Part shown: one piece after another, positions 1-17,526 of the stretch
Position numbering within the stretch: position 1 is the first letter of the stretch
How the letters are laid out: each line of letters opens with the position of its first letter
Source: a virus
Taxonomy: Duplodnaviria; Heunggongvirae; Uroviricota; Caudoviricetes
DNA: 17,526 nucleotides
Reading direction: 5' to 3' (one strand)
Virus record (IMG/VR): IMGVR_UViG_2645727821_000005
Span: 1 to 17,526 of that record
Notes under the pieces: model-generated
Databases searched by the model: none
Told to the model about the DNA's origin: nothing
Seen by the model: only the letters and a program-made list of their open reading frames with translations
Program-made: the position numbers and the translations under genes

Positions 1-237
1 GTAACCATAAGGCGGCGTCCACAGAAAGGCCTTCCAGCCCCCGTGCTCAGCCAGAAACGACTCCAGCGCCGTGGCCTCCTCACGGGAGACAGACAGCGTC
101 ACGCTGTACGTTTTCAGGTCAGCGTTCAGCCCGGCAGGCGCACGCTGGGAATAGCCATCACCAAAGCGCACCTCCCTGACGGAAGGAGCCGATGTCACAT
201 CCATCCCGGGTTTCACTTTCCAGCGGAAGGTTTTCAT
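1..237 (-). CDS. M: Tail protein gpM (lambda M-like), partial: 3' end runs off the window edge
   Basis: Minus-strand ATG at 237..235 (MKTFRWKVKPGMDV...) reads in frame to position 1 with no stop. The ATG overlaps the TGA stop of H (ATGA coupling). Position directly downstream of H matches lambda gene order. Confidence 0.8.
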   Translation of the reverse strand, partial: MKTFRWKVKPGMDVTSAPSVREVRFGDGYSQRAPAGLNADLKTYSVTLSVSREEATALESFLAEHGGWKAFLWTPPYGY

Positions 238-2816
238 CGTCCACCTCCGTAGAACAGACCACCATCGCGCATCTGTGCCTGGATTTCATCACGGGCACCC
301 TTGCGGGCCATGTCATACACCGCCTTCATCATCTGTGGACCTGGCAGACCATTCGTACCGTCGTTCTGAATCACCACGTTGTTGTTCTGCTCAAACCTGA
401 TACCCTCTGAACGCCGCATTTGCGCCGGACTTCCGGTGCCACCGACATAACCGCCAGTGGCATAGCCGCGCATCAGCCGGTAGAGATTCCCCACGCCAAT
501 CCGGCTGGTTGCCTCCTTCGTGAAGACAAATTCACCACGGTGAACAATCCCCGCTGGCTCATATTTGCCGCCGGTTCCAGTAAATCCTCCGGTTGCAAAA
601 TGAAATTTCTCCGCAGCGGCCTGAATGGCTGTACCGGTTGAGACGGATGCGCCGCCACCAACAACTCCGCCAATGACGCTGCCGATACTCCCGACAATCC
701 CCACCATTGCCTGCTTAAGCAGAATTTCTGTCATCATGGACAGCACGGAACGGGTGAAGCTGCGCCAGTTCTGCTCACTGCCGGTCAGCATCGCCGCCAT
801 ATTCTGCGCAATACCATCAAAGGTCTGCGTGGCTGCACTTTTAACCTGCGACATACTGTCCGTGGCGCTCTCTTCCCACTCACTCCAGCCGGACTTCAGG
901 CCTGCCATCCAGCTCCCGCGAAGCTGGTCTTCAGCCGCCCAGGTCTTTTTCTGCTCTGACATGACGTTATTCAGCGCCAGCGGATTATCGCCATACTCCT
1001 CCTTCAGGCGCTGTTCCGTGGCTTCCCTCGCTGCCTGCCGGTCAGTCAGCCCCCGGCTTTTCGCATCAATGGCGGCCCGTTTTGCCCGTTGCTGCTGTGC
1101 AAATTTATCCGCCTGCTTCGCCAGTTCGTTCAGCCGTTTCTGGTGTTCAACCTTATCGCCAAGTTCAGCCAGCTGACGTTTGTACTCCAGCGTCTCTTTT
1201 TCATGAGCAAGAAGAGATTTTTCCTCGATACTTAGCGATTTCTTCTGTCCGTCCAGAACGTCAGCAGACAACTTCTCATGCAACACGGCATACTGGCTTT
1301 CGGCTGTCCACAAATCCCGGCGCTGCTGGCTGATTTTTTCATTCGCTCCGCTATGCTGCTCAAGCATTTTTAGTTCAGCTTGTAACGCAAGAAGAGCTGC
1401 ATGTGCTCGATCTTCCTGACGCTCTCCCGCAGACACCTTCACGCCGGACTGTTTCGGCTTTTTCAGCGTCGCTTCATAATCCTTTTTCGCCGCCGCCATC
1501 AGCGTGTTGTAATCCGCCTGCAGAATTTTCCCGTCTTTCAGTGCCTTATTCAGTTCTTCCTGACGGGCGGTATATTTCTCCAGCGGCGTCTGCAGCCGTT
1601 CGTAAGCCTTCTGCGCCTCTTCGGTATATTTCAGCCGTGACGCTTCGGTATCGCTCTGCTGCTGCGCATTTTTGTCCTGTTGACGCTGTTGATCTACCCT
1701 CTTTTGGGCTGCATCCCGCTCCAGGCGTTTTTTTTCACGATCATCCCAGTAACGCGCCCGCGCTTCATCGTTAACGAAATAATCATCCTTGCGCAGATTC
1801 CAGATGTCGTCTGCTTTCTTAAACGCAGCCTCTGCCTTAATCAGCATCTCCTGCGCGGTATCAGGACGACCAATATCCAGCACCTCATCCCACATGGATT
1901 TGAATGCCCGTGCTGTCCTGTCTGCCCAGGTCTCCAGCGTGCCCATGTTCTCTTTCAGGCGGCGGGTCTGGTCATCAAACCCTTTCGTTGCGGCCTCGTT
2001 CGCCGCCTGCAATGCCCCGGCTTCATCGCCGGAACGCTGCAACTGAGCAACATACGCAATCTGCTCCGCCGTCACGTTATGGAACTGGCGCGCCATCGCC
2101 GTCAGCCCCGACGTCGGGTCAGTGGTCAGCTTCCCGAAGGCTTCAGCGACCTTGTCCACCTCCACGCCGGATGCAGAGGAGAAACGCGCCACACTCTGGC
2201 TGATGGACGCAATCTGAGCCTCACCGCTTACCCCCGCCTTAACCAGTGCACTGAGTGACTCGCTGGTCTGGTTAAACGTCAGCCCTGCCGCCTGCCCGGC
2301 TCTGGACAGGACCAGCATACGATCTGCCGTCAGACCCGACTGATTGCCGGAAAGGACCAGCGTTTTGTTGAAATCGGACAGGGTTGAGTTGCCCTGATAC
2401 CAGGCATACGCCAGCGCACCGGTCGCCACCGCCAGCGAGGTTGCCCCGACCATCGGCAGGGTGATCGCACCGGCAAGCCCCCTGAACATGGGGATCATCC
2501 CGCCGAAGGAGTCCTTCACCTGACCACCCTGTTGCAGCAGGATCAGCCACGGACTTTGCCCGCCTGCAAGCTGCGTGGCCACGTCGGTGAACTGCGCAGG
2601 CAGCATACGCATGGCAGCTTTATACTGCCCGACGGAAATCCCCGCTTTCTGTGCAGCCAGTGCCTGTCGGCTCAGCGACTGTTCAACGACTGCCGCTGTT
2701 TTTTTCGCATCACTTTCCGTACCGGAAAAATGACGCCTGACTCTGGCCATCTGCTCGTCAAATCTGGCCGCATCCAGACTCAAATCAACGACCAGATCGC
2801 CTACCGGTTCAGCCAT
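234..2816 (-). CDS. H: Tail tape measure protein gpH
   Basis: 860-aa ORF, ATG at 2816..2814. N-terminus MAEPVGDLVVDLSLDAARFDEQMARV and C-terminal glycine-rich region match lambda gpH as I recall it; long coiled-coil-like central region. Start overlaps the end of the T reading frame. Confidence 0.93.
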   Translation of the reverse strand: MAEPVGDLVVDLSLDAARFDEQMARVRRHFSGTESDAKKTAAVVEQSLSRQALAAQKAGISVGQYKAAMRMLPAQFTDVATQLAGGQSPWLILLQQGGQVKDSFGGMIPMFRGLAGAITLPMVGATSLAVATGALAYAWYQGNSTLSDFNKTLVLSGNQSGLTADRMLVLSRAGQAAGLTFNQTSESLSALVKAGVSGEAQIASISQSVARFSSASGVEVDKVAEAFGKLTTDPTSGLTAMARQFHNVTAEQIAYVAQLQRSGDEAGALQAANEAATKGFDDQTRRLKENMGTLETWADRTARAFKSMWDEVLDIGRPDTAQEMLIKAEAAFKKADDIWNLRKDDYFVNDEARARYWDDREKKRLERDAAQKRVDQQRQQDKNAQQQSDTEASRLKYTEEAQKAYERLQTPLEKYTARQEELNKALKDGKILQADYNTLMAAAKKDYEATLKKPKQSGVKVSAGERQEDRAHAALLALQAELKMLEQHSGANEKISQQRRDLWTAESQYAVLHEKLSADVLDGQKKSLSIEEKSLLAHEKETLEYKRQLAELGDKVEHQKRLNELAKQADKFAQQQRAKRAAIDAKSRGLTDRQAAREATEQRLKEEYGDNPLALNNVMSEQKKTWAAEDQLRGSWMAGLKSGWSEWEESATDSMSQVKSAATQTFDGIAQNMAAMLTGSEQNWRSFTRSVLSMMTEILLKQAMVGIVGSIGSVIGGVVGGGASVSTGTAIQAAAEKFHFATGGFTGTGGKYEPAGIVHRGEFVFTKEATSRIGVGNLYRLMRGYATGGYVGGTGSPAQMRRSEGIRFEQNNNVVIQNDGTNGLPGPQMMKAVYDMARKGARDEIQAQMRDGGLFYGGGR

Positions 2817-3647
2817 ACCGGACTCCTCCTGCGATACCTTCTGATACTGTCATCAGCATTACGTCATCCTCCGTCATGTCCGCCACATCCGGGGAAGCGG
2901 GGATAACTTCATTCCCGTCCGGGCCAAAGCGGACGCCTCCGGCAAGCCCTGCCGCTTTCTGCATCAGCACATCATCTTCAGGCTCTTCGTCAGCCTCGCG
3001 CCGGTTCAGCAGACTGAAATCCAGCGGATGCATATCCGGATCGCTGAAAAACAGGCTGAGCACGGTGTACGTCAGCCCGGAAAAGTGCATATCCAGCAGA
3101 ACATCATGAAAATAATGGGTACTGTAAAAGCGGTGCCAGTCGGCATACTCCGTGGATGACATCCCGGCGAGCATGGCGCGCCAGTCGGGTCGCCCCATCT
3201 CGCGCGCCAGTTTCAGGGCAAAACTCAGCTCACCGTCGAACACTTTCCCGCAGAAACAGGCTCTGCAGGCCCGGCGTCCTCTGCCTGGTCAGGGGCATCA
3301 TTCACCACAAACTCATACATTCCGGACAGCCGGTACACCACGTTTTCAGCATGAGAAATTGCCGCTGTGGGCCAGGTGGTAAGCACTTCCTGCTCAATCT
3401 GTTTAACGGCTTCATTCATGGACGGCTGCTTTGTCTTCTGCGGATGGTTATGCCACAGGGACATCGCCACCAGAAACGCGCCGGTTCTGATGGCGTCTTC
3501 CACAGTAAACTTCCGGTTGCTGTCTGACTCCGCCTGTTCTGCCTGCCGTTTCATCAGGGCGAGATGCTCAATACGCTGCAGGGCTGACAGTTCAGAAAGC
3601 GTGACGGTCACGCCGTTATATTCAAATGATTCGGTTTTCAGGAACAT
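2809..3647 (-). CDS. T: Tail assembly chaperone gpGT, made by a -1 programmed frameshift from G into the T frame
   Basis: The T frame (2809..3243) is open in the -1 frame relative to G and has no independent start with an RBS. Slippery heptamer G GGA AAG lies at minus-strand 3249..3243. T frame ends 8 nt inside the start of H. Confidence 0.85.
3225..3647 (-). CDS. G: Tail assembly chaperone gpG
   Basis: 140-aa ORF (MFLKTESFEYNGVTVTLSEL...), ATG at 3647..3645 preceded by GGAGAG. Same length as lambda G. Ends SAGKCSTVS immediately after the GGGAAAG slippery heptamer. Confidence 0.92.
   Translation of the reverse strand: MFLKTESFEYNGVTVTLSELSALQRIEHLALMKRQAEQAESDSNRKFTVEDAIRTGAFLVAMSLWHNHPQKTKQPSMNEAVKQIEQEVLTTWPTAAISHAENVVYRLSGMYEFVVNDAPDQAEDAGPAEPVSAGKCSTVS
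3243..3249 (-). other. Programmed -1 ribosomal frameshift slippery site GGGAAAG (G to G-T)
   Basis: Plus strand 3243..3249 is ctttccc, reverse complement GGGAAAG, lying across the last codons of G (…A-G-K-C-S-T-V-S-stop). The -1 frame continues into the T ORF. Confidence 0.85.
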
Positions 3648-3662
3648 CGCTGACTCTCCGGA

Positions 3663-4403
3663 TTAGCTGTCGGTGACGTTGATTTCTGCAACCGCAGCAA
3701 ACTCACCATTACCGGATACAACCGGAATGTTGACCCTGCCTGCAGCAACGCCCTTCACGGTGATGGTCATACCACTGACCGACACGGTGGCTTTTGTTTT
3801 ATCCGAAGACACCGCACGGAAGCTCTTGTCGGTTGCGCCTTCCGGCTGGAATGCCACGGTCAGCGTGGTGCTCTGCCCTTTCACCACCGAGGTGCTGGCA
3901 GGCGTCACGGTCATGCCGGTTGCCGCTGTTACCGTGCTGCGATCTTCTGCCATCGACGGACGTCCCACATTGGTGACTTTCACCGTGCGGGTGATCACTT
4001 CCTTCGCCGTCACCGCCTTACCGATACTGCTGACCCAGCCACGGAACACATCGACCGTGCCGTTCGGGAAGCGAATTTTATAGGCACGGGTATCACCTTC
4101 ATTAAACCACGCCAGCAGCGCCTGCTGCCCCTGCTCTCCGGGCATCCACGCCAGCGTGAAACTGGTATCTCCGGCAGATTTCTGCCCCTGCCCGGTCGCA
4201 GTCCAGTCCGCATCTTCATCATCGAGATAGCTGTCGTCATAGGACTCAGCGGTCAGTTCGCCGGGTGTCAGGTCTTTAACTTTTGCCAGACGCGACCAGT
4301 CAACGTCTGAAAGCGGGTTTGCATAAGGGTCGCCGCTCCCGTTATAAACCCACAGTGTGGTCCCGGCCCCTTTCACCGGTGCCAGAGGATTTGGTGTTGG
4401 CAT
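3663..4403 (-). CDS. V: Major tail tube protein gpV
   Basis: ATG at 4403..4401 preceded by GAGGA gives 246 aa ([20 protein letters not shown]...), the lambda V length. The ORF-track start at 4433 is an upstream in-frame extension that overlaps U. C-terminal Ig-like region present. Confidence 0.9.
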
Positions 4404-4410
4404 ATCGTCC

Positions 4411-4806
4411 TCACATTTCATAGGTAATGACATAAGTCAGATCGGCTGAACTCCACAGGCCCGCATCATCGTCGCGCCGGTAGTCATAGCCGCTGGCCAC
4501 CATACTGGTGATCAAATCTGACAGTGCCGGGATATCGCTCATCACCGGATAAATCCGGGACTCCATCCACGCATCCAGCTCTGAATCCGGCACCTGAGCA
4601 GGCAGGAAAACTTCGATATGCAGCTCCGCCTGCCAGGTATCGCTGTCCAGCTCTTCGCCCGTGTATTCAGCGCCAGTGAGATAAACGGCAATTGCCGGAA
4701 AATCCGCCTCATCAAAAACAGCGGGGCGACCATCAAAAAGCGTCGCCCCGGTGTCATGCTTCTCCAGTGCATCCAGTACGGCTGCACGGAGTTCAGTATG
4801 TTTCAT
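4411..4806 (-). CDS. U: Tail tube terminator protein gpU
   Basis: 131 aa ([21 protein letters not shown]...), same length as lambda U. ATG overlaps the Z stop (ATGA). Confidence 0.92.
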
Positions 4807-5378
4807 CGCTTTATCACAATCCTCAGTTGTTGTTTCAGCGCATAGCTCAGTTCTTTTGGCAGACGTTCTCGCCGGATACGGTTAACGTTCTCATCAAAAG
4901 CCTGTTTCAGTGGGACCGCCATCGGAATTTTCACCACCTGAATGGGAAGACGATTACGCTTTTTCCTTCCCTTATCGTCAGTGCCCTTCGCATACCGTGC
5001 TTCTGGCAGACGTTGCATAACATGCCAGCGTCCATTATTTAATCGCTGGATGAATGCCCGCTGATAACGATGCTGACCGGCTTTGAGTATGCTGTTCGGG
5101 CGATGACCAAGCATCCTGATCCCCAGCTTAATAGCAGGGAGATCACCTCGGTTAACGATAATTTTTGCATTCGGATTTCTGACCGTAGCTCGTTTCAGTC
5201 TGGATCGCTCTTTAACCAGTTTTCTCGGCACCCGGGTTTCACGGGCGACCTGAGACGAAGACTGATTAATCGCCGTTGCGGCCACGCGGTTAATGGCCAT
5301 TGCTGACGCACCAGGCACCGCCGTTTTGCTGATACGGCTGAGGTTTTCAACGGCCTGCTCAAGACCTTTTATGGCCAT
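4803..5378 (-). CDS. Z: Tail completion protein gpZ
   Basis: 191 aa (MAIKGLEQAVENLSRISKTAV...), ATG at 5378..5376. Position and length match lambda Z (192 aa as I recall). Confidence 0.88.
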   Translation of the reverse strand: MAIKGLEQAVENLSRISKTAVPGASAMAINRVAATAINQSSSQVARETRVPRKLVKERSRLKRATVRNPNAKIIVNRGDLPAIKLGIRMLGHRPNSILKAGQHRYQRAFIQRLNNGRWHVMQRLPEARYAKGTDDKGRKKRNRLPIQVVKIPMAVPLKQAFDENVNRIRRERLPKELSYALKQQLRIVIKR

Positions 5379-5389
5379 ACACCCCCCTT

Positions 5390-5743
5390 TCAGCGACGAC
5401 GGTTAACGGCAGGCGGCACACCACGCCCAAGCCAGAGATGACAACTTCCGCCATCATCCGGCGAAATCCGGTCTATCCAGAAGTTTTCCTCACCGATGGT
5501 CAGCGTGTCGCCGCGCCGCAGCTGCCGCACATCATCAGTCCGGACAAACAGGGACGGGCTGGAGCCTTCAACGCGCACGCCCTGTCCGGCATAGCTGATA
5601 TTTTCAGGGTCATCAAAAACACCACGTATCACCGCACCGGACTGCTCACCGGATGTCATGGTGGCTGACGTTCCCATGTACCCGCGTATCGTTTCATCGG
5701 CGCGGGCAATGGCAGCATCGAACAGGTTATCGAAATCAGCCAC
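5390..5743 (-). CDS. FII: Head-tail joining protein gpFII
   Basis: 117 aa (MADFDNLFDAAIARADETIRGYMG...). GTG start at 5743..5741 preceded by GGGAGG with 4-nt spacer. Confidence 0.9.
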   Translation of the reverse strand: MADFDNLFDAAIARADETIRGYMGTSATMTSGEQSGAVIRGVFDDPENISYAGQGVRVEGSSPSLFVRTDDVRQLRRGDTLTIGEENFWIDRISPDDGGSCHLWLGRGVPPAVNRRR

Positions 5744-5754
5744 AGCGCCTCCCG

Positions 5755-6153
5755 TTATTGCATTCTGGCCAGGCCACGTTCTGTCATTTCGGCTGCCACA
5801 CCGGCAGAGACACGGAACGCCGTTCCCGGCAGCACAAATGCCACAGGTTCATCCCGCGTGGCGTGAAGTGCATCGGTATGCAGCGTCACCAGTGCCACTA
5901 CCGTGACCAGTTCAGCCGTATCATGAATCACGGTATCCGGCTGCGCTGATACCACCTCATTTTCATGCCCGGTCAGCGCATTTTCCGGGCTGACAGATGT
6001 GTCCTGACCGGCAGCGTCATCCGTGTCATCAAGCTCCTCTTCCAGCTCTGCCACACGGAGTGCCAGTTCTTCTTTCGTCCCCGTCAGGCTGACATCACGG
6101 TTCAGTTGCTCACCCAGCACCTGAAGACGGGCAATCAGTTCATCTTTCGTCAT
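5755..6153 (-). CDS. FI: DNA packaging / head assembly protein gpFI
   Basis: ATG at 6153..6151 preceded by GGAGGAG gives 132 aa (MTKDELIARLQVLGEQLNRDV...), the lambda FI length. The ORF-track start at 6192 is an upstream extension. Confidence 0.9.
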   Translation of the reverse strand: MTKDELIARLQVLGEQLNRDVSLTGTKEELALRVAELEEELDDTDDAAGQDTSVSPENALTGHENEVVSAQPDTVIHDTAELVTVVALVTLHTDALHATRDEPVAFVLPGTAFRVSAGVAAEMTERGLARMQ

Positions 6154-6194
6154 GGACTCCTCCACAGAGAGAAAATGGCCCCGAAGGGCCATGA

Positions 6195-7220
6195 TTACGC
6201 CAGTTGTACAGACACGAATTCATCAGGGTCAGCCAGCAGCATCAGCGGTGCTGACTGAATCATAGTGAACTCACGCGCCGGATCGCCGGTGGTCACCCAG
6301 TTTTTCGGGTAACGGGCAGAGGCGTTAATGCCTTCGCGCTGTGCGTCCGCATCCTGAATGCAGCCATAGGTGCGCAGACCGCGTGCCTGAGTGTTCCCCA
6401 GCACCATCGTGTTGTCCGGCAGGAAGTTCTTTTTGACGCCGTTTTCCACGTACTGTCCGGAATAAACGACGATGGCCACATCGCCATACATTCCCTTATA
6501 AGACACCGCTTTGCCCAGGTCTTTCACCGCTGTCTCCAGCTCGGAATGAGAGCCGCGACGGGTATCCAGCTTATCCTTGACGGCCTTGAAGGAACGGAAC
6601 AGCGCCCAGCCTTTCGGATCAAACACGATGATATTCACCACACCGCTGGCGTTCAGCGCGTAGGCTTCGATATCGTCGGTCGGGTCATACGTGGACTTGT
6701 CACGCTGGCTCCACTGCGTGCCGCCGGACTGCGTGATGTTATTCGCCGCACTGCGGCCCATATCCACTTCAACCGGATCGAAGGCTTCACCGGTCATGGT
6801 GTATTTGCCCTTAAGCACGGCAGAAACGGCCTGCATCTCTTCGACCTGAGCAATGGCCAGCTCTTCGTCACGCATGTTCTGCATGATGATGCGACGGCGG
6901 CGGTAAGCCGGGTCCGCCAGATTCTGTGGATCTTCATCCGGCAGGCGACGCAGGGTCATCTGCGGATTCACCTCATGCTTCGGCTTGACATATCCCGGCG
7001 TAAATTCAGAGGTGGAGCCGCCACGGGAACGGATAACCTCACCGGAAACAATCGGCGAAACGTACAGCGCCATGTTTACCAGTCCCGGAATTTGTGAGAG
7101 ATAGACTTTCTCCGTGGTGAAGGGATAGCTCTCACGGAAAAAGAGACGCAGAAACAGCGGATCAAACTTAAATTTCTTCTCATTTGCCGCCAGCAGCTGG
7201 GCAGTTGTGTACATCGACAT
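6195..7220 (-). CDS. E: Major capsid protein gpE
   Basis: ATG at 7220..7218 gives 341 aa (MSMYTTAQLLAANEKKFKFDPLFLRLFF...), the lambda E length. The ORF-track start at 7247 is an upstream extension into the D-E intergenic hairpin. Confidence 0.93.
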   Translation of the reverse strand: MSMYTTAQLLAANEKKFKFDPLFLRLFFRESYPFTTEKVYLSQIPGLVNMALYVSPIVSGEVIRSRGGSTSEFTPGYVKPKHEVNPQMTLRRLPDEDPQNLADPAYRRRRIIMQNMRDEELAIAQVEEMQAVSAVLKGKYTMTGEAFDPVEVDMGRSAANNITQSGGTQWSQRDKSTYDPTDDIEAYALNASGVVNIIVFDPKGWALFRSFKAVKDKLDTRRGSHSELETAVKDLGKAVSYKGMYGDVAIVVYSGQYVENGVKKNFLPDNTMVLGNTQARGLRTYGCIQDADAQREGINASARYPKNWVTTGDPAREFTMIQSAPLMLLADPDEFVSVQLA

Positions 7221-7230
7221 AAAAAAATTC

Positions 7231-7257
7231 CGTAAAAAAAGCCGCACAGGCGGCCTT
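7231..7257 (-). terminator. Putative intrinsic terminator/attenuator hairpin between D and E
   Basis: Minus strand reads GCCGCCTGTGCGGC (5-bp GC-rich stem, 4-nt loop) followed by TTTTTTT, between the D stop and the E start. Confidence 0.5.
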
Positions 7258-7275
7258 TAGTGATGAAGGGTAAAG

Positions 7276-7608
7276 TTAAACGATGCTGATTGCCGTTCCG
7301 GCAAACGCGGTCCGTTTTTTCGTCTCGTCGCTGGCAGCATCCGGCCAGAGCACATCCTCATAACGGAACGTGCCGGACTTGTAGAACGTCAGCGTGGTGC
7401 TGGTCTGGTCAGCATCAACCGCAAGAATGCCAACGGCAGCACCGTCGGTGGTGCCATCCCACGCAACCAGCTTACGGGTGGAGGTGTCCGGCATCAGCGG
7501 GGTCATTGCAGGCGTTTTCGCACTCAATCCGCCGGGCGCGGTTGCGGTATGAGCCGGGTCACTGTTGCCCAGCGGCTGGTAATGGGTAAAGGTTTCTTTG
7601 CTCGTCAT
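7276..7608 (-). CDS. D: Head decoration protein gpD
   Basis: ATG at 7608..7606 preceded by AAGGGA gives 110 aa ([27 protein letters not shown]...), the lambda D length. Confidence 0.92.
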
Positions 7609-7617
7609 AAACATCCC

Positions 7618-8223
7618 TTACACTGGTGTGTTCAGCAAATCGTTAACGGCATCAGATGCCGGGTTACCTGCAGCCAGCGGTGCCGGTGCACCCTGCATCA
7701 GACGATCCAGCGCAGTATCACTGCGCGCCTGTGCACTCTGTGGTGCTGCGGCCAGAATGCGGCGGGCCGTTTCCACGGTCATACCGGGGGTTTCAGCCAG
7801 CACGCGGGCCTGTTCTTCGCGTCCGTGAGCCTCCTCACAGTTGAGGATCCCCATAATGCGGCTGTTTTCTGCCGCAACTGCTGCGGTGATCTGCGCGTTC
7901 ACGTCCGGCTGCGCCGCGCTGGCGTTTTCGCCCTCCGTCTCTGGCATCACGTCAGTAACGTCAGCCTGCGAAGCAGTGGCTGAAACAGTTGTTGATTGGG
8001 TCTCTTTGGTCATTCGCCCTCCTGAGAGACGGGATTTACGTGCATCCAGTGCATCACGCATGACGGTGATCGCATCGGTGCTGTTAACAAGTTCATCAGC
8101 CAGTCCGGCATCAATGGCCTCCTGACCGCTGTACACTGCAGCCTCGGTATCCAGCACAGCCTGCACGGACAGGCCGGTATATGCCGACACCTTCTGCGCA
8201 AACATCCGGCGGGTTGCATCCAT
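7618..8223 (-). CDS. Nu3: Scaffolding protein gpNu3, nested in frame in the 3' third of C
   Basis: Internal in-frame ATG at 8223..8221 (MDATRRMFAQKVSAYTGL...) gives 201 aa sharing the C stop, as in lambda. Called from the lambda precedent and the presence of the ATG, not from an independent signal. Confidence 0.6.
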   Translation of the reverse strand: MDATRRMFAQKVSAYTGLSVQAVLDTEAAVYSGQEAIDAGLADELVNSTDAITVMRDALDARKSRLSGGRMTKETQSTTVSATASQADVTDVMPETEGENASAAQPDVNAQITAAVAAENSRIMGILNCEEAHGREEQARVLAETPGMTVETARRILAAAPQSAQARSDTALDRLMQGAPAPLAAGNPASDAVNDLLNTPV

Positions 8224-8917
8224 CCGGGACTGCAGTGTCTCCCGGACGTCATCCGGAAGATGGCTGTAGGGGTTGCCATCCACCTTATGGCTGCCGCTGT
8301 AAATCAGCGTGATTTCCATGCCCTGTTTCTCCAGCGCAGCGCCGTAATTACTGTGAGCCATCATGACGCCGATGGAGCCTGTCCGGGCGGTCTGTGTGAC
8401 CAGACGCCGGGAGGCGGCACTGGCAAGCAGCTGACCTGCACTGCAGTTCATGTCGTTGGCCAGCGCCCATACCGGTTTTATGTCACGCACACGGGCGATG
8501 ATGTCAGCGCAGTCAAATGCCCCCGCCACCATCCCGCCGGGCGTGTCCATATCGAGCAGAATGCCGTCCACCATCGGATCGCTGGCAGCCTGTTGCAGAC
8601 GGGCGATAATGCCGTTGTAACCGGTCATCCCCGAATACGGCTGCAGCGCCCGCGTCCGGCTGACCAGCGTGCCGGACACCGGCAGCACGGCGATGCCGTT
8701 CATGACCTGATAACTGCGGGCCTGTCGTGGTCCGTCATCATCAACGGATAACGCCAGCGTCGCGGGTGCCTCTCCGGCAGTCAGGCTGTCACCGGACACC
8801 GCATCCGTCAGGCGGCTGATCCCAAGCTGGCCTGCAAGCGCACAAAAGAAAACCCGCGCATAGGCGGGTTCAAGCATCAGCGGCTCATTAAAGGCCATGC
8901 TGGCAATATGCGGGAGA

Positions 8918-8937
<20 letters not shown>
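7618..8937 (-). CDS. C: Head maturation protease / scaffold gpC (ClpP/S49-like)
   Basis: GTG at 8937..8935 preceded by GGAGGAGAAGA gives 439 aa (VTAELRNLPHIASMAFNEPLML...), the lambda C length. Start overlaps the 3' end of B by 20 nt as in lambda. The ORF-track start at 9072 is an upstream extension. Confidence 0.9.
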
Positions 8938-12618
<3,681 letters not shown>

Positions 12619-12644
<26 letters not shown>

Positions 12645-13164
12645 TCAGCAACCCCGGTATCAGTTCATCCAGCGCGGCTGCTTTGTTCATGGCTTTGATG
12701 ATATCCCGTTTCAGGAAATCAACATGTCGGTTTTCCAGTTCCGGAAAACGCCGCTGCACCGACAGGGGGATCCCGTCGAGAATACTGGCAATTTCACCTG
12801 CGATCCGCGACAGCACGAAAGTACAGAATGCGGTTTCCACCACTTCAGCGGAGTCTCTGGCATTTTTCAGCTCCTGTGCGTCGGCCTGCGCACGCGTAAG
12901 TCGATGGCGTTCGTACTCAATAGTCCCTGGCTGGAGATCTGTCTCGCTGGCCTGCCGCAGTTCTTCAACTTCCCGGCGCAGCTTTTCGTTCTCAATTTCA
13001 GCATCCCTTTCGGCATACCATTTTATGACGGCGGCAGAGTCATAAAGCACCTCATTACCCTTGCCACCGCCTCGCAGAACGGGCATTCCCTGTTCCTGCC
13101 AGTTCTGAATGGTACGGATACTCACACCGAAAATGTCAGCCAGCTGCTTTTTGTTGACTTCCAT
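12619..13164 (-). CDS. Nu1: Terminase small subunit gpNu1
   Basis: 181 aa (MEVNKKQLADIFGVSIRTIQNWQEQGMPVLRGGGKGNEVLYD...), ATG at 13164..13162. N-terminal winged-HTH region. Sits about 190 bp downstream of cosN as in lambda. Confidence 0.95.
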
Positions 13165-13400
13165 TGTTCATTCCACGGCCAAAAACAGAGAAAGGAAACG
13201 ACAGAGGCCCAAAAGCTCGTTTTCAGCACCTGTCGTTTCCTTTCTTTTCAGGGGGTATTTTAAATAAAAACATTAAGTTACAACGAAGAAGAACGGAAAT
13301 GCCTTAAACCGGAAAATTTTCATAAATAGCGAAAACCCGCGAGGTCGCCGCCCCGTAGCCTGCCGGATCGCCGGAAAGGACCCGCAGGCGTTCTGGTTTA
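13165..13400 (-). other. cos region (cosB between cosN and Nu1, cosN, and the cosQ side)
   Basis: Reverse complement of 13261..13353 reads GGGCGGCGACCTCGCGGGTTTTCGCTATTTATGAAAATTTTCCGGTTTAAGG..., the lambda left end as I recall it. Plus strand 13354..13385 (cgtagcctgccggatcgccggaaaggacccgc) resembles the lambda right end. Confidence 0.85.
13342..13353. other. cosN 12-nt cohesive-end sequence (GGGCGGCGACCT on the minus strand)
   Basis: Plus strand 13342..13353 is aggtcgccgccc, the exact reverse complement of the lambda 12-nt cohesive end. Confidence 0.85.
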
Positions 13401-13435
13401 TTCTCAATGAATTCAATGTCTGACAGACCTGCGTC

Positions 13436-13453
13436 GTGCGACCACGGTCGCAC
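13436..13453. repeat. 18-bp palindrome GTGCGACCACGGTCGCAC, copy 1 of 3
   Basis: 8-bp inverted arms GTGCGACC / GGTCGCAC around a 2-bp centre. Identical 18-mer recurs at 15122..15139 and 15342..15359. Confidence 0.9.
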
Positions 13454-13477
13454 AGCAATGAATCAACATCCTGCATG

Positions 13478-13546
13478 CTCGTGCAGAGGAGTTCCCCGTC
13501 AGGCTACGGTCATGGTTAATGCGGGAATACAGCGACGATACAGCGC
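13478..13546. repeat. Direct repeat, copy 1 (~69 bp; partner at 15263..15331)
   Basis: ctcgtgcagaggagttccccgtcaggctacggtcatggttaatgcgggaatacagcgacgatacagcgc aligns to 15263..15331 in the same orientation with 5 mismatches (about 93% identity) at an offset of 1785 bp. Confidence 0.9.
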
Positions 13547-13662
13547 ATGATGTGTCAGGCTTGAATACATTTATCCGTTAAAAGGGATATCAGTTAAGTT
13601 ATCCCGTGTAGGGTATAAGCCATTATCAAAGCCACTCAGTAGCGAATGGCTTTTGTAATGGA

Positions 13663-14112
13663 CTATTTAATTAGTGATGCTGCGTATTCGATTAGATATA
13701 ACTTAGGTGCCAACCAGATTTTTAACCATGTCATATTGGTTACTACAGCAATAATAAAACTTACCCACAGAACAAAAACTGCTGCTAATGGTAAGATAAG
13801 AAAACTAATCTCACCGTTACTTTCCCAAATCATAGTCGGTTTGTATTTAGGCTTCCCTTTTTCCCATGACCATCCTTCATTATCGAACTTACCAATTTCA
13901 ACTTTTTGGTACTGTTTCTTCATAAACCAAATAACCAGCGGGATTGTTGAAATGGCTATTAATGTTTTAATCAGGCTATCAACCATATTCCATACCAGCA
14001 ACTGATGAACAACATCCGGAATCTGAGCCTGACTGAATGCAATGGCGGAATCAATTCCATCGCTGGCCTTCTTCAATAAATCAACAAGAATTTTATTTGC
14101 TTCTTCTTGCAT
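13663..14112 (-). CDS. Hypothetical small membrane protein (149 aa; at least two predicted transmembrane segments), AT-rich accessory gene
   Basis: ATG at 14112..14110 with a weak AGGA-type RBS (MQEEANKILVDLLKKASDGIDSAIAF...). Hydrophobic stretches LIKTLIAISTIPLVIWFM and ISFLILPLAAVFVLWVSFIIAVV. Lysine-rich, low GC compared with the flanking phage genes. No family recognised. The ORF-track start at 14157 is an alternative. Confidence 0.7.
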   Translation of the reverse strand: MQEEANKILVDLLKKASDGIDSAIAFSQAQIPDVVHQLLVWNMVDSLIKTLIAISTIPLVIWFMKKQYQKVEIGKFDNEGWSWEKGKPKYKPTMIWESNGEISFLILPLAAVFVLWVSFIIAVVTNMTWLKIWLAPKLYLIEYAASLIK

Positions 14113-14237
14113 GTTTATATCCTGTAAGTTGTAAGCCTGTTCGAGAAAAATAAACAACTACGAGAGACAGAAAAAAAATATCTCAGGCTCTCTTTCTATA
14201 AGCTTTTAGTTGAGGATGTTCTGCAAAACAAAACTGG

Positions 14238-15098
14238 TTAGTTATGTAACTGCTTCCGGAATACAACAGCCGACGAGCTACAACGTAAAATTCGTTTGAT
14301 TGTGGCAGTTGAGGAAACATACTTGCATTTCTCAACATCATCAATAATGACCACATCCGGTACAGGAATGACGCGGGTATGCAATGTTTTTGCACTAATA
14401 ACATCACAGCCATTCAGTGGTCGAATATCTGCATCTTCAGGCACTACCAGAAGCACACGTTTTTCCGGTGCAGAAAAGCCAGCAGCAAGAGTGCGTGACA
14501 ATAAAGTCATTCCGCTGCGTGGCTTCATACAAATTTCAGAAATATGATTCTTTTCGTCCAAATGATGCTGGACATCATTTTTATCATCACTCAACAACTC
14601 TGCTGTTAATACAATCCCTGCTGTCTCAGATTTCCAGGAAATGCTGATATCCTGATCATCTGCATCAACATCATATTTCATCGAGTAAGGACTAAAGCTA
14701 CGTCCAACGAACGCATCATTTACCAGTACACGCCCACCCTGTCTGACCTGAAAGTCAACGCGCCCTGAAAGCTGATTTGCTGTTACAAGCAATGCCTTTT
14801 TTCTTTTTGTTTTATTGCTCATTGCCACCAACTGTTCAGCCATCTCTCTTGTCACACTACCAGAAACTCTTTCTTGAATTTTCACAGAAAATTTTCTGGA
14901 TGTAGTAGCATCGACATTAAAAAATCTGGATGTCATCAGGCAGTTATTAACAATTGGCATCAGCTCACTTACGATTGTAAAAAATTCCCGGTAAAGCTCA
15001 TTTTGCTTTTCAACACACAGCTTTCCACAATCGTCCAGCTTACGCTCAAGAGCACTTAACCTTTCCATTATTGAATTAATTTTTTGCAACTCTTTCAT
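14238..15098 (-). CDS. Hypothetical protein (286 aa), AT-rich accessory gene with a coiled-coil-like N-terminus; function unknown
   Basis: ATG at 15098..15096 preceded by a strong AGGAGG RBS at 5-6 nt spacing (MKELQKINSIMERLSALERKLDDCGKL...). The 373-aa ORF in the track extends upstream through the repeat and palindrome region and is probably not translated. Low GC. No family recognised. Confidence 0.75.
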   Translation of the reverse strand: MKELQKINSIMERLSALERKLDDCGKLCVEKQNELYREFFTIVSELMPIVNNCLMTSRFFNVDATTSRKFSVKIQERVSGSVTREMAEQLVAMSNKTKRKKALLVTANQLSGRVDFQVRQGGRVLVNDAFVGRSFSPYSMKYDVDADDQDISISWKSETAGIVLTAELLSDDKNDVQHHLDEKNHISEICMKPRSGMTLLSRTLAAGFSAPEKRVLLVVPEDADIRPLNGCDVISAKTLHTRVIPVPDVVIIDDVEKCKYVSSTATIKRILRCSSSAVVFRKQLHN

Positions 15099-15120
15099 CA
15101 AAACCTCCTGACAAAAATAC

Positions 15121-15140
15121 CGTGCGACCACGGTCGCACG
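15121..15140. repeat. 18-bp palindrome, copy 2 of 3 (9-bp arms here), just upstream of the 286-aa gene RBS
   Basis: cGTGCGACCACGGTCGCACg. On the minus strand the hairpin is followed by GGTATTTTTGT and then AGGAGG and the ATG, so it is terminator- or attenuator-like. Confidence 0.85.
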
Positions 15141-15262
15141 CTCCTGAATACATGCCCTGTTTCTTCCACCCTCGCACAGGACTGGCGAGCATGAGGGACA
15201 AACCCGCGAATCATTAGCGCGGTAAAAACCCGGTGTGCATCGTTTTTGATTATTTCCGCACA

Positions 15263-15331
15263 CTCGCGCAGAGGAGTTCCCCGTCGGGCTACGGTCATGG
15301 TTAATGCGGAAATACGGCGACGATGCAGCGC
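15263..15331. repeat. Direct repeat, copy 2 (~69 bp; partner at 13478..13546)
   Basis: ctcgcgcagaggagttccccgtcgggctacggtcatggttaatgcggaaatacggcgacgatgcagcgc; see copy 1. Confidence 0.9.
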
Positions 15332-15340
15332 GGTATTTAA

Positions 15341-15360
15341 TGTGCGACCACGGTCGCACA
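15341..15360. repeat. 18-bp palindrome, copy 3 of 3 (9-bp arms), 20 nt downstream of the DUF4406-like gene stop
   Basis: tGTGCGACCACGGTCGCACa. On the minus strand it follows the TAA of the upstream gene and is followed by the A/U-rich ATTAAATAC. Confidence 0.85.
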
Positions 15361-15378
15361 CGAGAAACAAAGAGATTT

Positions 15379-15690
15379 TTATGCTACAGAGGAACAAGCT
15401 GGCGGGTAATTCAGCGTAGTGAATACCGGCATCTCCATCTTGTATGCGTAATGATACTCAGCAGTTGCTCCAGCAGACGCTTTCCAGCCAGGAAGCATCA
15501 AAATAGCATCCGCACAACGAAGCATTGCAAAGCAAATATCCATGTATTCACGTTGTGTCAGACCATTAGGTAAAGTGGCTGGATTCAAGACAGAGTGACC
15601 ATGTCGTGACAAACGATCTGCCTCTTTATTAAAGGCGTCACGATTAAAGTTCTCATATCCCGTCATTGGCCCGGCAATATAAATTTTCAT
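15379..15690 (-). CDS. Small accessory protein, DUF4406-like / nucleoside 2-deoxyribosyltransferase-like (103 aa)
   Basis: ATG at 15690..15688 (MKIYIAGPMTGYENFNRDAFNKEADRLSRHGHSVLNPATLP...). The N-terminal MKIYIAGPMTG...NP motif is what I recall as characteristic of DUF4406. Sits directly downstream of Rz. GC is visibly lower than the head genes. Family call is from memory. Confidence 0.75.
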   Translation of the reverse strand: MKIYIAGPMTGYENFNRDAFNKEADRLSRHGHSVLNPATLPNGLTQREYMDICFAMLRCADAILMLPGWKASAGATAEYHYAYKMEMPVFTTLNYPPACSSVA

Positions 15691-15731
15691 TCACTATCCA
15701 ACAAATTGAGTTCGTTTTTGATACAGAGGGA

Positions 15732-16199
15732 TTAATTCAGGCATTGCGTATTGATGTATTCCTGAAGCGTTCTCAGTGCTGTTTGGTCGCGGATAATTCC
15801 GTCCCGGATACCGAGAACGTTTCGTCCAGCAACTGAAGAGAGTTCGACGGTGGCATCATTGCCCATGCCGGAGGCGCTGGAGGTTTTGGCTGAGGCTGGC
15901 ACAAGGCATTTTCCTTTGACGAGCACCCGACCACCATTATCAAGCTTACGCCGAAGAGCATCATTTTCAGCTTTCGCATTGGCTAACTCCTTCGTGTATT
16001 TAGCATCGAGTGCATCAGCAGCACGCTGGCGCTGCTGCATGTCAGCGATGGTGGCGGTCGCCTGCTTCAGCTCACTGACTTTTTTATCACGCTGTTCTTT
16101 GTAGGCGATGGCGTTATCACGGTAATGATTAACAGCCCACGACAGGCAGACGATGATGCAGATAACCAGAGCGGAGATAATCGCGGTTAACCGACTCAT
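15732..16199 (-). CDS. Rz: Spanin inner-membrane subunit Rz (i-spanin)
   Basis: ATG at 16199..16197 ([40 protein letters not shown]...) gives an N-terminal transmembrane helix, then a coiled-coil periplasmic domain; N-terminus is like lambda Rz. The ORF-track start at 16235 is a GTG extension. Confidence 0.85.
15773..15979 (-). CDS. Rz1: Spanin outer-membrane lipoprotein subunit Rz1 (o-spanin), embedded in the +1 frame of Rz
   Basis: 68 aa ([44 protein letters not shown]...). ATG at 15979..15977, lipobox-like VVGC and a proline-rich segment, entirely inside Rz in a different frame as in lambda Rz/Rz1. Confidence 0.8.
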
Positions 16200-16287
16200 G
16201 ACATCAACACCCCAACGGCTAGAAACCACGGCCACGCATCGTTGCCATTAAATGCGAGCAACGCTGCCATGAAAAAGCAAATCATGC

Positions 16288-16785
16288 TCATTGCTGCCCC
16301 CACAAACAGACTTCTCGCTCAATATCACGACGGGTCATCAGCCCTTTCCATTGCTTACCGCCAGCGTATGTCCAGCGACGCAACTGGTCACATGCGCCCT
16401 TGATATCGCCCTGGTTTATTTTGCGAAGAAGCGTCGATGTTCTGAAATTACCAGCACCCACGTTGTAAACGAATGAGTAAAGAGCGCCGCGCGTTGTTTC
16501 CGGTATATCGACTTTGATGTACGGGTTAATTTGTCTGGCGACAGTGGCAAGGTCTTTATTCAGGAGGGCTTTGCATTCTGCTTCGGTATACGTTTTACCG
16601 AGCATGATGTCTTTTCCGGTGTGTCCGTGACATACAGTCCATACGCCAACGATATCTTTGTATGGTATGTAGCTGACACCTTCCAGGCCATCGTCACCAC
16701 CTGGGCCAGTGATTAACACTGATGCTATAGCAATTGCTCCGCCACCAATAGCAGCAGCAACGGCTTTTCGTAATGATGGAGGCAT
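16288..16785 (-). CDS. R: SAR endolysin (T4-lysozyme-family muramidase with N-terminal signal-anchor-release domain), phage 21 R-like
   Basis: 165 aa ([59 protein letters not shown]...). Gly/Ala-rich weakly hydrophobic N-terminus typical of SAR endolysins, followed by a lysozyme catalytic region. ATG overlaps the S stop (TAATG). Confidence 0.9.
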
Positions 16786-17000
16786 TATTCACCTCTCGCA
16801 GCCTTGCGCTTATCTTCTTTAATCTTGAAATAAAGGTTTGTCAGGTACGTCAGCAGGCCAAATACCAGGCTACCCAGCACACCTATTGCTGCCCACTGTG
16901 AGGGCGTGACTTTATCGAGCAACTGTAAAAACCAATACCCGGCACTACCTGCTGAGGTGCCATAGGCGACACCCGTTGTTAACTTATCCATGGATTTCAT
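16785..17000 (-). CDS. S: Pinholin (phage 21 S-like holin/antiholin with dual-start motif)
   Basis: 71 aa ([71 protein letters not shown]). Two transmembrane segments. MKSM dual start at Met1 and Met4. RBS GAGGTGG. Immediately upstream of the SAR endolysin. Confidence 0.9.
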
Positions 17001-17031
17001 AACCCCACCTCGCAGATGCGGGTGCTGTGTA

Positions 17032-17060
17032 ATGGAAATAAAAAGGCCACCTGCGTGGCC
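17032..17060 (-). terminator. Putative intrinsic terminator between the methyltransferase gene and S
   Basis: Minus strand reads GGCCACGCAGGTGGCC (6-bp GC stem, 4-nt loop) followed by TTTTTATTT, in the 66-bp gap between the methyltransferase stop (17067) and the S start (17000). Confidence 0.6.
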
Positions 17061-17066
17061 ACCAGA

Positions 17067-17526
17067 TTATTTCCCCACCAGCTCGTTTATCTCTTTCACT
17101 GTCTGGTTAAACCGCCCTGACTCAAGATCAACACCTAAGGCCCGACGCCCCAGCGCCATTGCTGCTTTTATTGTGGAACCGGATCCCATAAAAAAATCAG
17201 CAACCAGATCACCTGGTCGACTACTGGCATTGATTATTTGCCTGAGCATATCCGCCGGTTTCTCACACGGATGTTTCCCCGGGTAGAACTGAACGGGTTT
17301 ATGCATCCAGACATCGGTATAAGGCACGGAGACTGATACGGAGAAATAGCGCCGGAGAGATTTAAACTCATCCAGCAATTCAGAATATTTGCGATTCAGT
17401 GAATCATAAGATGCCACCAGCTGGTGGTGTGGTTGTTCCAGTTGTTGTTCCTGAAACTTCTCTGCCGCTATACGGGAAAACAGTGCCTGTAACTTCCGAT
17501 AGTCAGCCTCATTCGGCAACTGCCAC
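17067..17526 (-). CDS. DNA methyltransferase (N6-adenine/N4-cytosine family, beta-class motif order), 3' portion only; 5' end lies outside the window
   Basis: C-terminal ...HKPVQFYPGKHPCEKPADMLRQIINASSRPGDLVADFFMGSGSTIKAAMALGRRALGVDLE... contains the FxGSGST AdoMet-binding motif I near the C-terminus. The DPPY-type catalytic motif expected upstream is not in the window, so the Met at 17519 is probably not the true start. Confidence 0.8.
   Translation of the reverse strand, partial: WQLPNEADYRKLQALFSRIAAEKFQEQQLEQPHHQLVASYDSLNRKYSELLDEFKSLRRYFSVSVSVPYTDVWMHKPVQFYPGKHPCEKPADMLRQIINASSRPGDLVADFFMGSGSTIKAAMALGRRALGVDLESGRFNQTVKEINELVGK

Follow-up and report, generated by a model that had tools for sequence, protein, structure and literature searches.

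A doubled spacer element, a two-gene cassette and N15-type centromere palindromes in a lambda-type late region, probably joined by mosaic recombination

We examined a pair of direct repeats that bracket a two-gene cassette in the late region of a tailed phage (Caudoviricetes; IMG/VR record IMGVR_UViG_2645727821_000005, positions 1 to 17,526). This whole stretch of 17,526 nucleotides (nt) is referred to as the window. All window genes lie on the minus strand, here called the late strand, and follow the lambda order, namely a DNA methylase fragment, holin, lysozyme, Rz/Rz1, a DUF4406 gene, the repeat region, cosQ/cosN, Nu1, A, and the head and tail genes. Read along the late strand, the repeat region consists of the DUF4406 gene, palindrome 1, 10 nt, the core of repeat copy B, an arm R, palindrome 2, 23 nt, gene1, gene2, an arm L, the core of repeat copy A, 19 nt, palindrome 3 and cos (Table 1). 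As argued below, the two repeat copies appear to be fragments of one widespread prophage element, and the three palindromes (PAL) are identical to centromere sites of the plasmid-prophage N15. We propose, with a probability of about 0.7, that the doubled spacer was formed by mosaic recombination that brought a moron-like cassette into an N15-like phage-plasmid, with joints at centromere palindromes.

Table 1 Positions of the features in and around the repeat region. Coordinates refer to the window; a dot marks a feature given on neither strand.
Feature	Position	Strand	Remarks
DUF4406 / nucleoside 2-deoxyribosyltransferase-like gene	15379..15690	-	Pfam E 3.7e-34; counterpart of N15 gene 57 (N15 annotation)
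Palindrome 1 (PAL1), GTGCGACCACGGTCGCAC	15342..15359	.	10 nt upstream of copy B
Repeat copy B (core, 74 nt)	15258..15331	-	5' two-thirds of the complete conserved unit
Complete conserved unit (103 nt: core and first ~30 nt of R)	15229..15331	-	cmsearch 130.1 bits; homologous to lambda, 933W and DLP12
R, element tail	15140..15257	-	variable middle; ends in conserved GGAAGAAAC(A/C)GG
Palindrome 2 (PAL2)	15122..15139	.	directly after R; 23 nt before gene1 ATG (15098); then T-run
Cassette gene1	14238..15098	-	286 amino acids; PHROG 2571
Cassette gene2	13663..14112	-	149 amino acids; two hydrophobic segments; PHROG 3054
Terminator-like hairpin opening L	13653-13628	-	directly 3' of the gene2 stop codon; annotated terminator in Ayreon
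L, left arm of the element	13547..13662	-	95% identity to Ayreon
Repeat copy A (core), truncated	13473..13546	-	without the 3' strands of helices P1 and P2
Palindrome 3 (PAL3)	13436..13453	.	19 nt downstream of copy A, ~83 nt before cosN; same junction in L100-type relatives
cosN cohesive-end sequence GGGCGGCGACCT	13342..13353	-	cosQ-like GGGTCCTTTCCGG before it; read from sequence

The repeat pair and its parent element

A repeat search of the window returned one outstanding direct-repeat family, 74 nt long with 91% identity between its copies (13473-13546 and 15258-15331, spacing 1785). Since all remaining repeat families in the window are at most 27 nt long with 73-83% identity, this pair is far beyond chance, and we regard it as confirmed to be a real feature of the window. 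An earlier note on this DNA had described same-orientation repeats of about 69 bp with 5 mismatches; that 69-nt core (13478-13546 and 15263-15331) was recovered and is now extended to 74 nt. Past the 3' end of copy A, a weak likeness between the copies runs on for ~14 nt (TGCAGGA versus TGCGGAA). The segment between the copies is AT-rich, with a guanine-cytosine content of 0.36-0.45 compared with ~0.5 in the flanks, in agreement with the distinct composition noted before. Elsewhere in the window, 25 nt within a head gene (6078-6102) are 76-80% identical to part of the core, which was taken as chance.

We considered the possibility that the repeat is coding sequence on either strand and rejected it. 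The plus-strand frames through the two copies, SRRGVPRRATVMVNAEIRRRCSA and SCRGVPRQATVMVNAGIQRRYSA, are 4 amino-acid changes apart, and insertions or deletions of 1 nt and 9 nt separate the homologues in other phages. The repeat is therefore non-coding, as had been supposed. A consensus scan revealed no sigma-70-like promoter in copy A or copy B, and the suggestion of a duplicated promoter was dropped.

To place the repeat among known phages, a 136-nt query around copy B was used; it matched 426 places in 424 phage records, and thus the element is almost always present as a single copy. Lambda, 933W, mEp460, Ayreon and many Stx phages are among the carriers of the element, which always lies between Rz/bor and cos/terminase (in 933W between bor and the terminase genes). 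Ayreon has one element with the left flank of copy A (L) and the right flank of copy B (R), indicating that the two window copies complement each other as pieces of a single element. By this comparison the ancestral element would be L-core-R, with copy B retaining the core and R without L and copy A retaining L and the core without R. Many phages have the terminator-bearing arm L in front of the core. The R tails of the window (15140-15160), lambda, 933W and Kati all end in GGAAGAAAC(C/A)GG, and the ~70 nt that precede this ending are highly variable.

These results bear directly on the insertion footprint put forward in the earlier note, an att-like duplication in which a mobile cassette is inserted site-specifically, a target of ~70 bp is duplicated and the recombinase acts in trans. 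The compositionally distinct cassette is indeed bracketed by direct repeats, and single-copy relatives are known. However, core plus R on one side and L plus core on the other are the reverse of the outcome of a target duplication, and among relatives the repeat length ranges from 74 to ~210 nt. One relative, locus L172, has the cassette with one copy only, and the 5 mismatches stem from crossing-over with a second lineage (see below). The two open reading frames between the repeats, gene1 and gene2, match only PHROG 2571 and PHROG 3054 and have no Pfam, NCBIfam or PADLOC match; no integrase or transposase domain was found in these searches in the open reading frames between or beside the repeats, as the first reading of the sequence had already indicated for the interval between them. 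As for membership in a known repeat family, which had been named as evidence against a footprint, the repeat belongs to a prophage-borne family found in 84% of complete E. coli genomes. We consider an att-like duplication hardly credible.

Centromere palindromes, relatives and a proposed history

The perfect 18-mer palindrome GTGCGACCACGGTCGCAC (plus strand) is present three times in the window in the same orientation, where 0.03 occurrences are expected by chance. All three copies lie at junctions of the repeat region and had previously been missed. The motif comprises arms GTGCGACC-NN-GGTCGCAC of 7-8 bp around a purine-pyrimidine center (motif string GTGCGACCNNGGTCGCAC). The window palindromes are identical to IR1 and IR4 of N15, SopB centromere sites with the sequence GTGCGACCACGGTCGCAC that were used for a synthetic N15 centromere (PMC7205306 Table 4). 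In N15, sites are found at 33479 (in repA), 35930, 41124 (immediately before the late promoter) and 45561 (IR4), the last between gene 58 and gene 59, ~800 bp before cos, where it is annotated as a putative rho-independent terminator. The nearest complete relative of the window, PhiR46_1, has five such sites, two of which flank its copy B; dispersed sites with one near the right end before cos are thus a pattern common to N15 and PhiR46_1. Ravin and Lane (1999) reportedly described IR1-IR4 as SopB-binding inverted repeats. We conclude from the identity and placement of the sequences that the three palindromes are most probably partition centromere sites, with the position of N15 IR4 triplicated. 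In viral contigs, exact matches to the palindrome were located at more than 119 loci with 84 distinct flank contexts. In one relative (L073) the palindrome next to R has its center dinucleotide flipped: its late strand reads AC, as does that of N15 IR4, where all other copies at this junction read GT.

Alternatively, the palindromes could primarily be terminators or other RNA hairpins, or cassette recombination sites resembling attC, rather than centromeres. Palindrome 2 is followed by GGTATTTTTGT and was called by the terminator scan, IR4 carries the terminator annotation mentioned above, and all three palindromes share one orientation. Palindromes 1 and 3, however, are not followed by a T-run, the sequence is exactly the N15 SopB site used experimentally (PMC7205306), relatives also have copies within repA and ahead of the late promoter, and an integrase of the integron type is absent. 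It is quite improbable that termination or cassette recombination is the primary role; palindrome 2 may act as an additional terminator hairpin.

The centromere assignment agrees with what is found in close relatives. PhiR46_1 (98% identity across 85% of the region) carries telL/telR, ParA/ParB, a RepA-type primase and, where N15 has its protelomerase, a large N-terminal open reading frame; its ParB is 74% identical to N15 SopB. Another relative, YDC107_1, is classified as Ravinvirus. The whole arrangement was found in 28 complete E. coli genomes, about half of them on plasmid records of 46-62 kb and the rest on chromosome records. These observations suggest that the window derives from a linear plasmid-prophage of the N15 kind whose minus strand carries late genes of the lambda type.

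The window segments were mapped onto all retrieved loci (designated by L numbers), and the architectures were read from these maps. Single copies are arranged as L'-core-R-PAL-cos in L122, L053 and L038, as L-core-19 nt-PAL-cos in six loci of the L100 type, and as DUF4406-PAL-core-R-cos in L185, where the palindrome has 1 mismatch and the upstream context is the same as in the window. L185 would represent either an empty site or a deletion product. Single-copy relatives had been expected under an insertion and were found (L185, L122, L100), and they are equally expected from homologous recombination. L172 (~5370-5417), which is not in an N15 context, shows an HNH-like gene, a decayed palindrome GTGCGACCGTGGTTGCTC and gene1-gene2-L-core-R, that is, the cassette with the downstream copy only; the decay fits a lapse of selection in a setting that lacks SopB. 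Among two-copy genomes, L106 shares the architecture of the window, while the second copy is complete in L091 (with PAL) and in PhiR46_1 and YDC107_1 (without PAL). Copy B is 100% identical in the latter two. The palindrome marks junctions with varied neighbors: the R end joins 4 different right neighbors, the DUF4406 end joins 2, and the cos side joins 2 left neighbors.

A three-way alignment further resolved the downstream copy. Up to the end of gene2 no difference separates the window from PhiR46_1, and within L the two are still nearly identical. At the core of copy A the resemblance switches to the L100 lineage and stays there further rightwards: the core differs from L100 at 3 positions and from PhiR46_1 at 7, and the following ~70 nt contain one difference to L100 and are unrelated to PhiR46_1. 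Since the alignment reveals a chimera of PhiR46_1 followed by L100, the truncated copy A would have been made by a second crossover inside the element. The 5 mismatches between the repeats thus probably reflect two lineages joined by that crossover, not decay after duplication. Rightward of copy A the window is also mosaic, with a cosN variant that differs from its nearest relatives: PhiR46_1 and L185 have GGGCGGAAGGCG at the same place versus the lambda-type GGGCGGCGACCT of the window (13353-13342), which we take to be a match to lambda cos. The mosaic junctions and the chimeric copy A support recombinational module exchange, another of the origins initially considered.

We propose the following history. 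The starting genome would already have had core-R-palindrome downstream of the DUF4406 gene, and the incoming piece would have been the AT-rich cassette of two genes, lacking a promoter, preceded by a palindrome and followed by L-core. The two-copy state would have arisen when unequal crossing-over at the 18-bp palindrome joined (..core-R-PAL-cos) to (X-PAL-gene1-gene2-L-core-R..). A second crossover within L/core with the other lineage would then have exchanged the right-hand portion of the downstream copy for the 19 nt and the third palindrome. The repeats would therefore be both products and substrates of homologous recombination, and they could delete the cassette again.

Several points weigh against this history. 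The 17.5-kb window contains no sopAB, tel or repA, and the plasmid-prophage status would rest on relatives with 96-98% identity and on the 28 E. coli genomes. Some relatives have one mismatch in palindrome 1. The order of events is reconstructed from extant architectures only, and 18 bp of homology are short for RecA-type recombination. A phage recombinase of the Red/RecET type would lead to the same pattern, as would illegitimate joining if selection then favored genomes that retained a centromere site.

We also explored whether a local tandem duplication of PAL-cassette-L-core-R, followed by two deletions, could account for the locus. The order PAL-core-R-PAL-gene1-gene2-L-core-PAL can formally be derived in this way. 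This route nonetheless needs three events with deletion ends that by coincidence fall beside the core, it leaves L172, the single-copy R-PAL-cos genomes and the lineage difference between the copies unexplained, and it does not accommodate a copy A that is a chimera of two lineages. Such a tandem duplication is highly improbable. The doubled spacer is a real feature and is explained by known processes, with mosaic recombination at the palindromes as the reading that we favor.

Palindrome 2 sits just before the Shine-Dalgarno sequence of gene1. Because it lies 23 nt upstream of the gene1 start, a SopB partition complex assembled there could keep the cassette silent or insulated as long as the phage remains a prophage. 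More generally, accessory genes next to palindromes at cassette joints could come to lie within the SopB partition complex. The centromere sites of N15 are reported to affect late gene expression (Ravin, Rech and Lane 2008).

The conserved unit and its predicted fold

The part of the element common to all contexts is ~104 nt, comprising the core and the first 30 nt of R, and it is complete in copy B only. Across six left-flank groups, at least four of them mutually unrelated, its left edge lies at one shared nucleotide, before GCG. Clearly different left flanks are seen in five groups, namely PAL1 with 10 nt, L, the bor promoter region, the position right after the Rz stop codon and one further context; the sixth, in an O104:H4-type Stx phage (L290), is like a diverged L. 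The unit boundaries are sharp and coincide with the base of a predicted fold, in which two helices, P1 (8 bp) and P2 (10 bp), close a structure that includes a small CCC/GGG hairpin. Over 27 distinct unit sequences and 21 pairs, 97.7% of the cells are paired, and double changes were seen in two P2 pairs (CG/UA and CG/GC). The late strand has 28 G-U cells versus 13 non-pairs, and most of the G-U cells would be A-C mismatches on the other strand. In a shuffle test none of 500 shuffles reached the observed score, and slid controls paired at only 30-62%. A 9-nt deletion in O104:H4-type Stx2 phages (L290 1501-1595, L291 301-395) removes the inner CCC/GGG hairpin and leaves P1 and P2 intact.

The covariation power is low because the members of the unit family share 82-100% identity; the effective sequence number is 1.14. 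The covariation term from RNAalifold is only -0.59 kcal/mol, and the z-scores of single-sequence folds on the late strand are weak (-1.6 and -2.3). When 0.9 Mb of retrieved loci were searched with a covariance model for more divergent relatives of the unit, no match fell below 105 bits, and thus the covariation power was not raised.

The sharp boundaries, the pairing and the retention of both helices in the Stx2 phages could also indicate that the duplication itself is functional, the unit being a cis-acting structured RNA or regulatory site of which each copy is kept for its adjacent gene block. Copy A, however, cannot fold without the 3' strands of both helices: it scored 59.7 bits with broken pairs in cmsearch compared with 130.1 for copy B, and its fold z-score was +0.98. 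Only copy B can therefore be a functional unit. As nearly all phages have one copy, and as the z-scores and covariation term are weak in a narrow family, a functional duplication is unlikely.

The unit is very common. With a 103-nt query it was present in 4575 of 5426 complete E. coli genomes (84%), at 11,716 places (median 2, maximum 11 per genome), and no annotated feature was seen at the unit among the matches listed. In K-12 it occupies the borD-ybcV spacer of DLP12 (579,010-579,113, 111.7 bits), where nothing is annotated and for which the literature search returned no relevant paper. A search of Rfam 15 at E<=1 over 12500-17526 gave no relevant match and only two chance-level matches elsewhere, and a full-text literature search with pieces of the unit sequence returned unrelated primer matches only. 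The known prophage small RNAs AgvB, AsxR, Esr41, STnc100 and PasA-D were considered and rejected; they map near Q/pR' or the holin gene instead. A role as the bor promoter was likewise rejected, both by the 933W unit, which starts ~114 nt upstream of the bor start and outside the AT-rich region, and by phages that keep the unit without bor. The AT-rich region upstream of 933W bor contains GTTTA-N5-TGTTTA, which was read as PhoP-box-like.

The lambda version of the unit was also found at a fixed position in assemblies of Cohnella, Brevibacillus, Pedobacter, Polaromonas, Pseudomonas, Shewanella and others, on eight contigs of ~3.5 kb and three of ~48.4-48.5 kb. These look like leftover lambda control DNA, either a ~3.6-kb amplicon or whole lambda. 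A scan of genome contigs for a wider family was set aside, as it returned a few Escherichia genomes and otherwise largely lambda control-DNA contamination and apparent chance matches to the degenerate pattern.

Taken together, it is possible, though doubtful, that the unit is a structured cis-RNA of the late transcript, as the predicted fold would suggest; the alternative is a neutral spacer that is often recombined. A combined proposal, in which the unit is an undescribed structured cis-RNA (such as a processing or stability element) and centromere palindromes are preferred joints of cassette exchange in N15-like plasmid-prophages, is offered tentatively, at odds well below even.

The cassette, its significance and comparison with known systems

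The cassette is not present in L185 nor in most lambdoid phages. Neither gene1 nor gene2 has a match in PDB, and a single-sequence AlphaFold 2 (AF2) model of gene1, made with no alignment, had a predicted local distance difference test (pLDDT) value of 39.8 and was unusable. A consensus scan detected no sigma-70-like promoter upstream of gene1; a terminator-like hairpin follows gene2 on its 3' side. In L001 (3268-3868, YDC107_1), and also in L009, a deletion within the cassette leaves the initial 585 nt of gene1 joined directly to the final 23 nt of gene2, and in some chromosomal copies (H89, H92) an IS5-family element lies within the cassette region. Between cosN and the Nu1 start, the window contains a 26-nt inverted repeat (13189-13245, 85% complementary, 5-nt gap), presumably the counterpart of the dyad in the lambda cosB region.

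The analysis removes a false lead in that the repeats point to mosaic recombination in a phage-plasmid and not to a new mobile element or att site. Two by-products emerged. One is a very common, sharply bounded and unannotated 104-nt prophage element with a plausible conserved fold; if it is a structured cis-RNA, it sits unannotated in 84% of complete E. coli genomes, including DLP12 of K-12. The other is the coincidence of N15-like centromere palindromes with cassette junctions, which could be recombination joints. These are the only parts that might repay more work, perhaps as a matter of specialist interest.

The closest counterparts of the spacer are those between bor and lambdap78 in lambda and between borD and ybcV in DLP12, which hold the homologous ~104-nt unit in the same orientation to the late operon. 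They differ from the window in that the unit is single, the bor promoter region takes the place of L and palindromes are absent. For the palindromes, the sopC centromere of the F plasmid offers a comparison, with tandem 43-bp repeats that contain the 16-bp motif TGGGACCACGGTCCCA (PMC3177203). Its motif has the same build as the window palindrome, 7-bp arms around a central A-C, whereas its arms are GGGACC and arrayed and those of the window are GCGACC and dispersed. The other comparison is with N15. IR1/IR4 have exactly this 18-bp sequence, the sites are scattered and not in tandem, and the window sites share the neighborhood of IR4 between post-lysis accessory genes and cos. In contrast to the one site of N15, the window has three in 1.9 kb at the edges of a duplicated spacer and cassette, and the center dinucleotide of its palindromes is opposite to that of IR4 relative to the late strand.

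The cassette itself resembles the morons of lambdoid phages, reportedly described by Juhala et al. in 2000, as its extra genes of deviant composition lie between conserved late blocks and are followed by a terminator-like hairpin. Unlike morons, it has no sigma-70-like promoter detected in front and is bounded by a centromere palindrome. Integron cassettes with their attC sites are similar in that the window cassette is promoter-less and bounded by a palindrome joined to varied neighbors. The differences are that no IntI-type integrase is present, that the window palindrome, a perfect 18-mer, is a known binding site of the ParB type, and that the junction patterns of the window fit homologous or illegitimate recombination.

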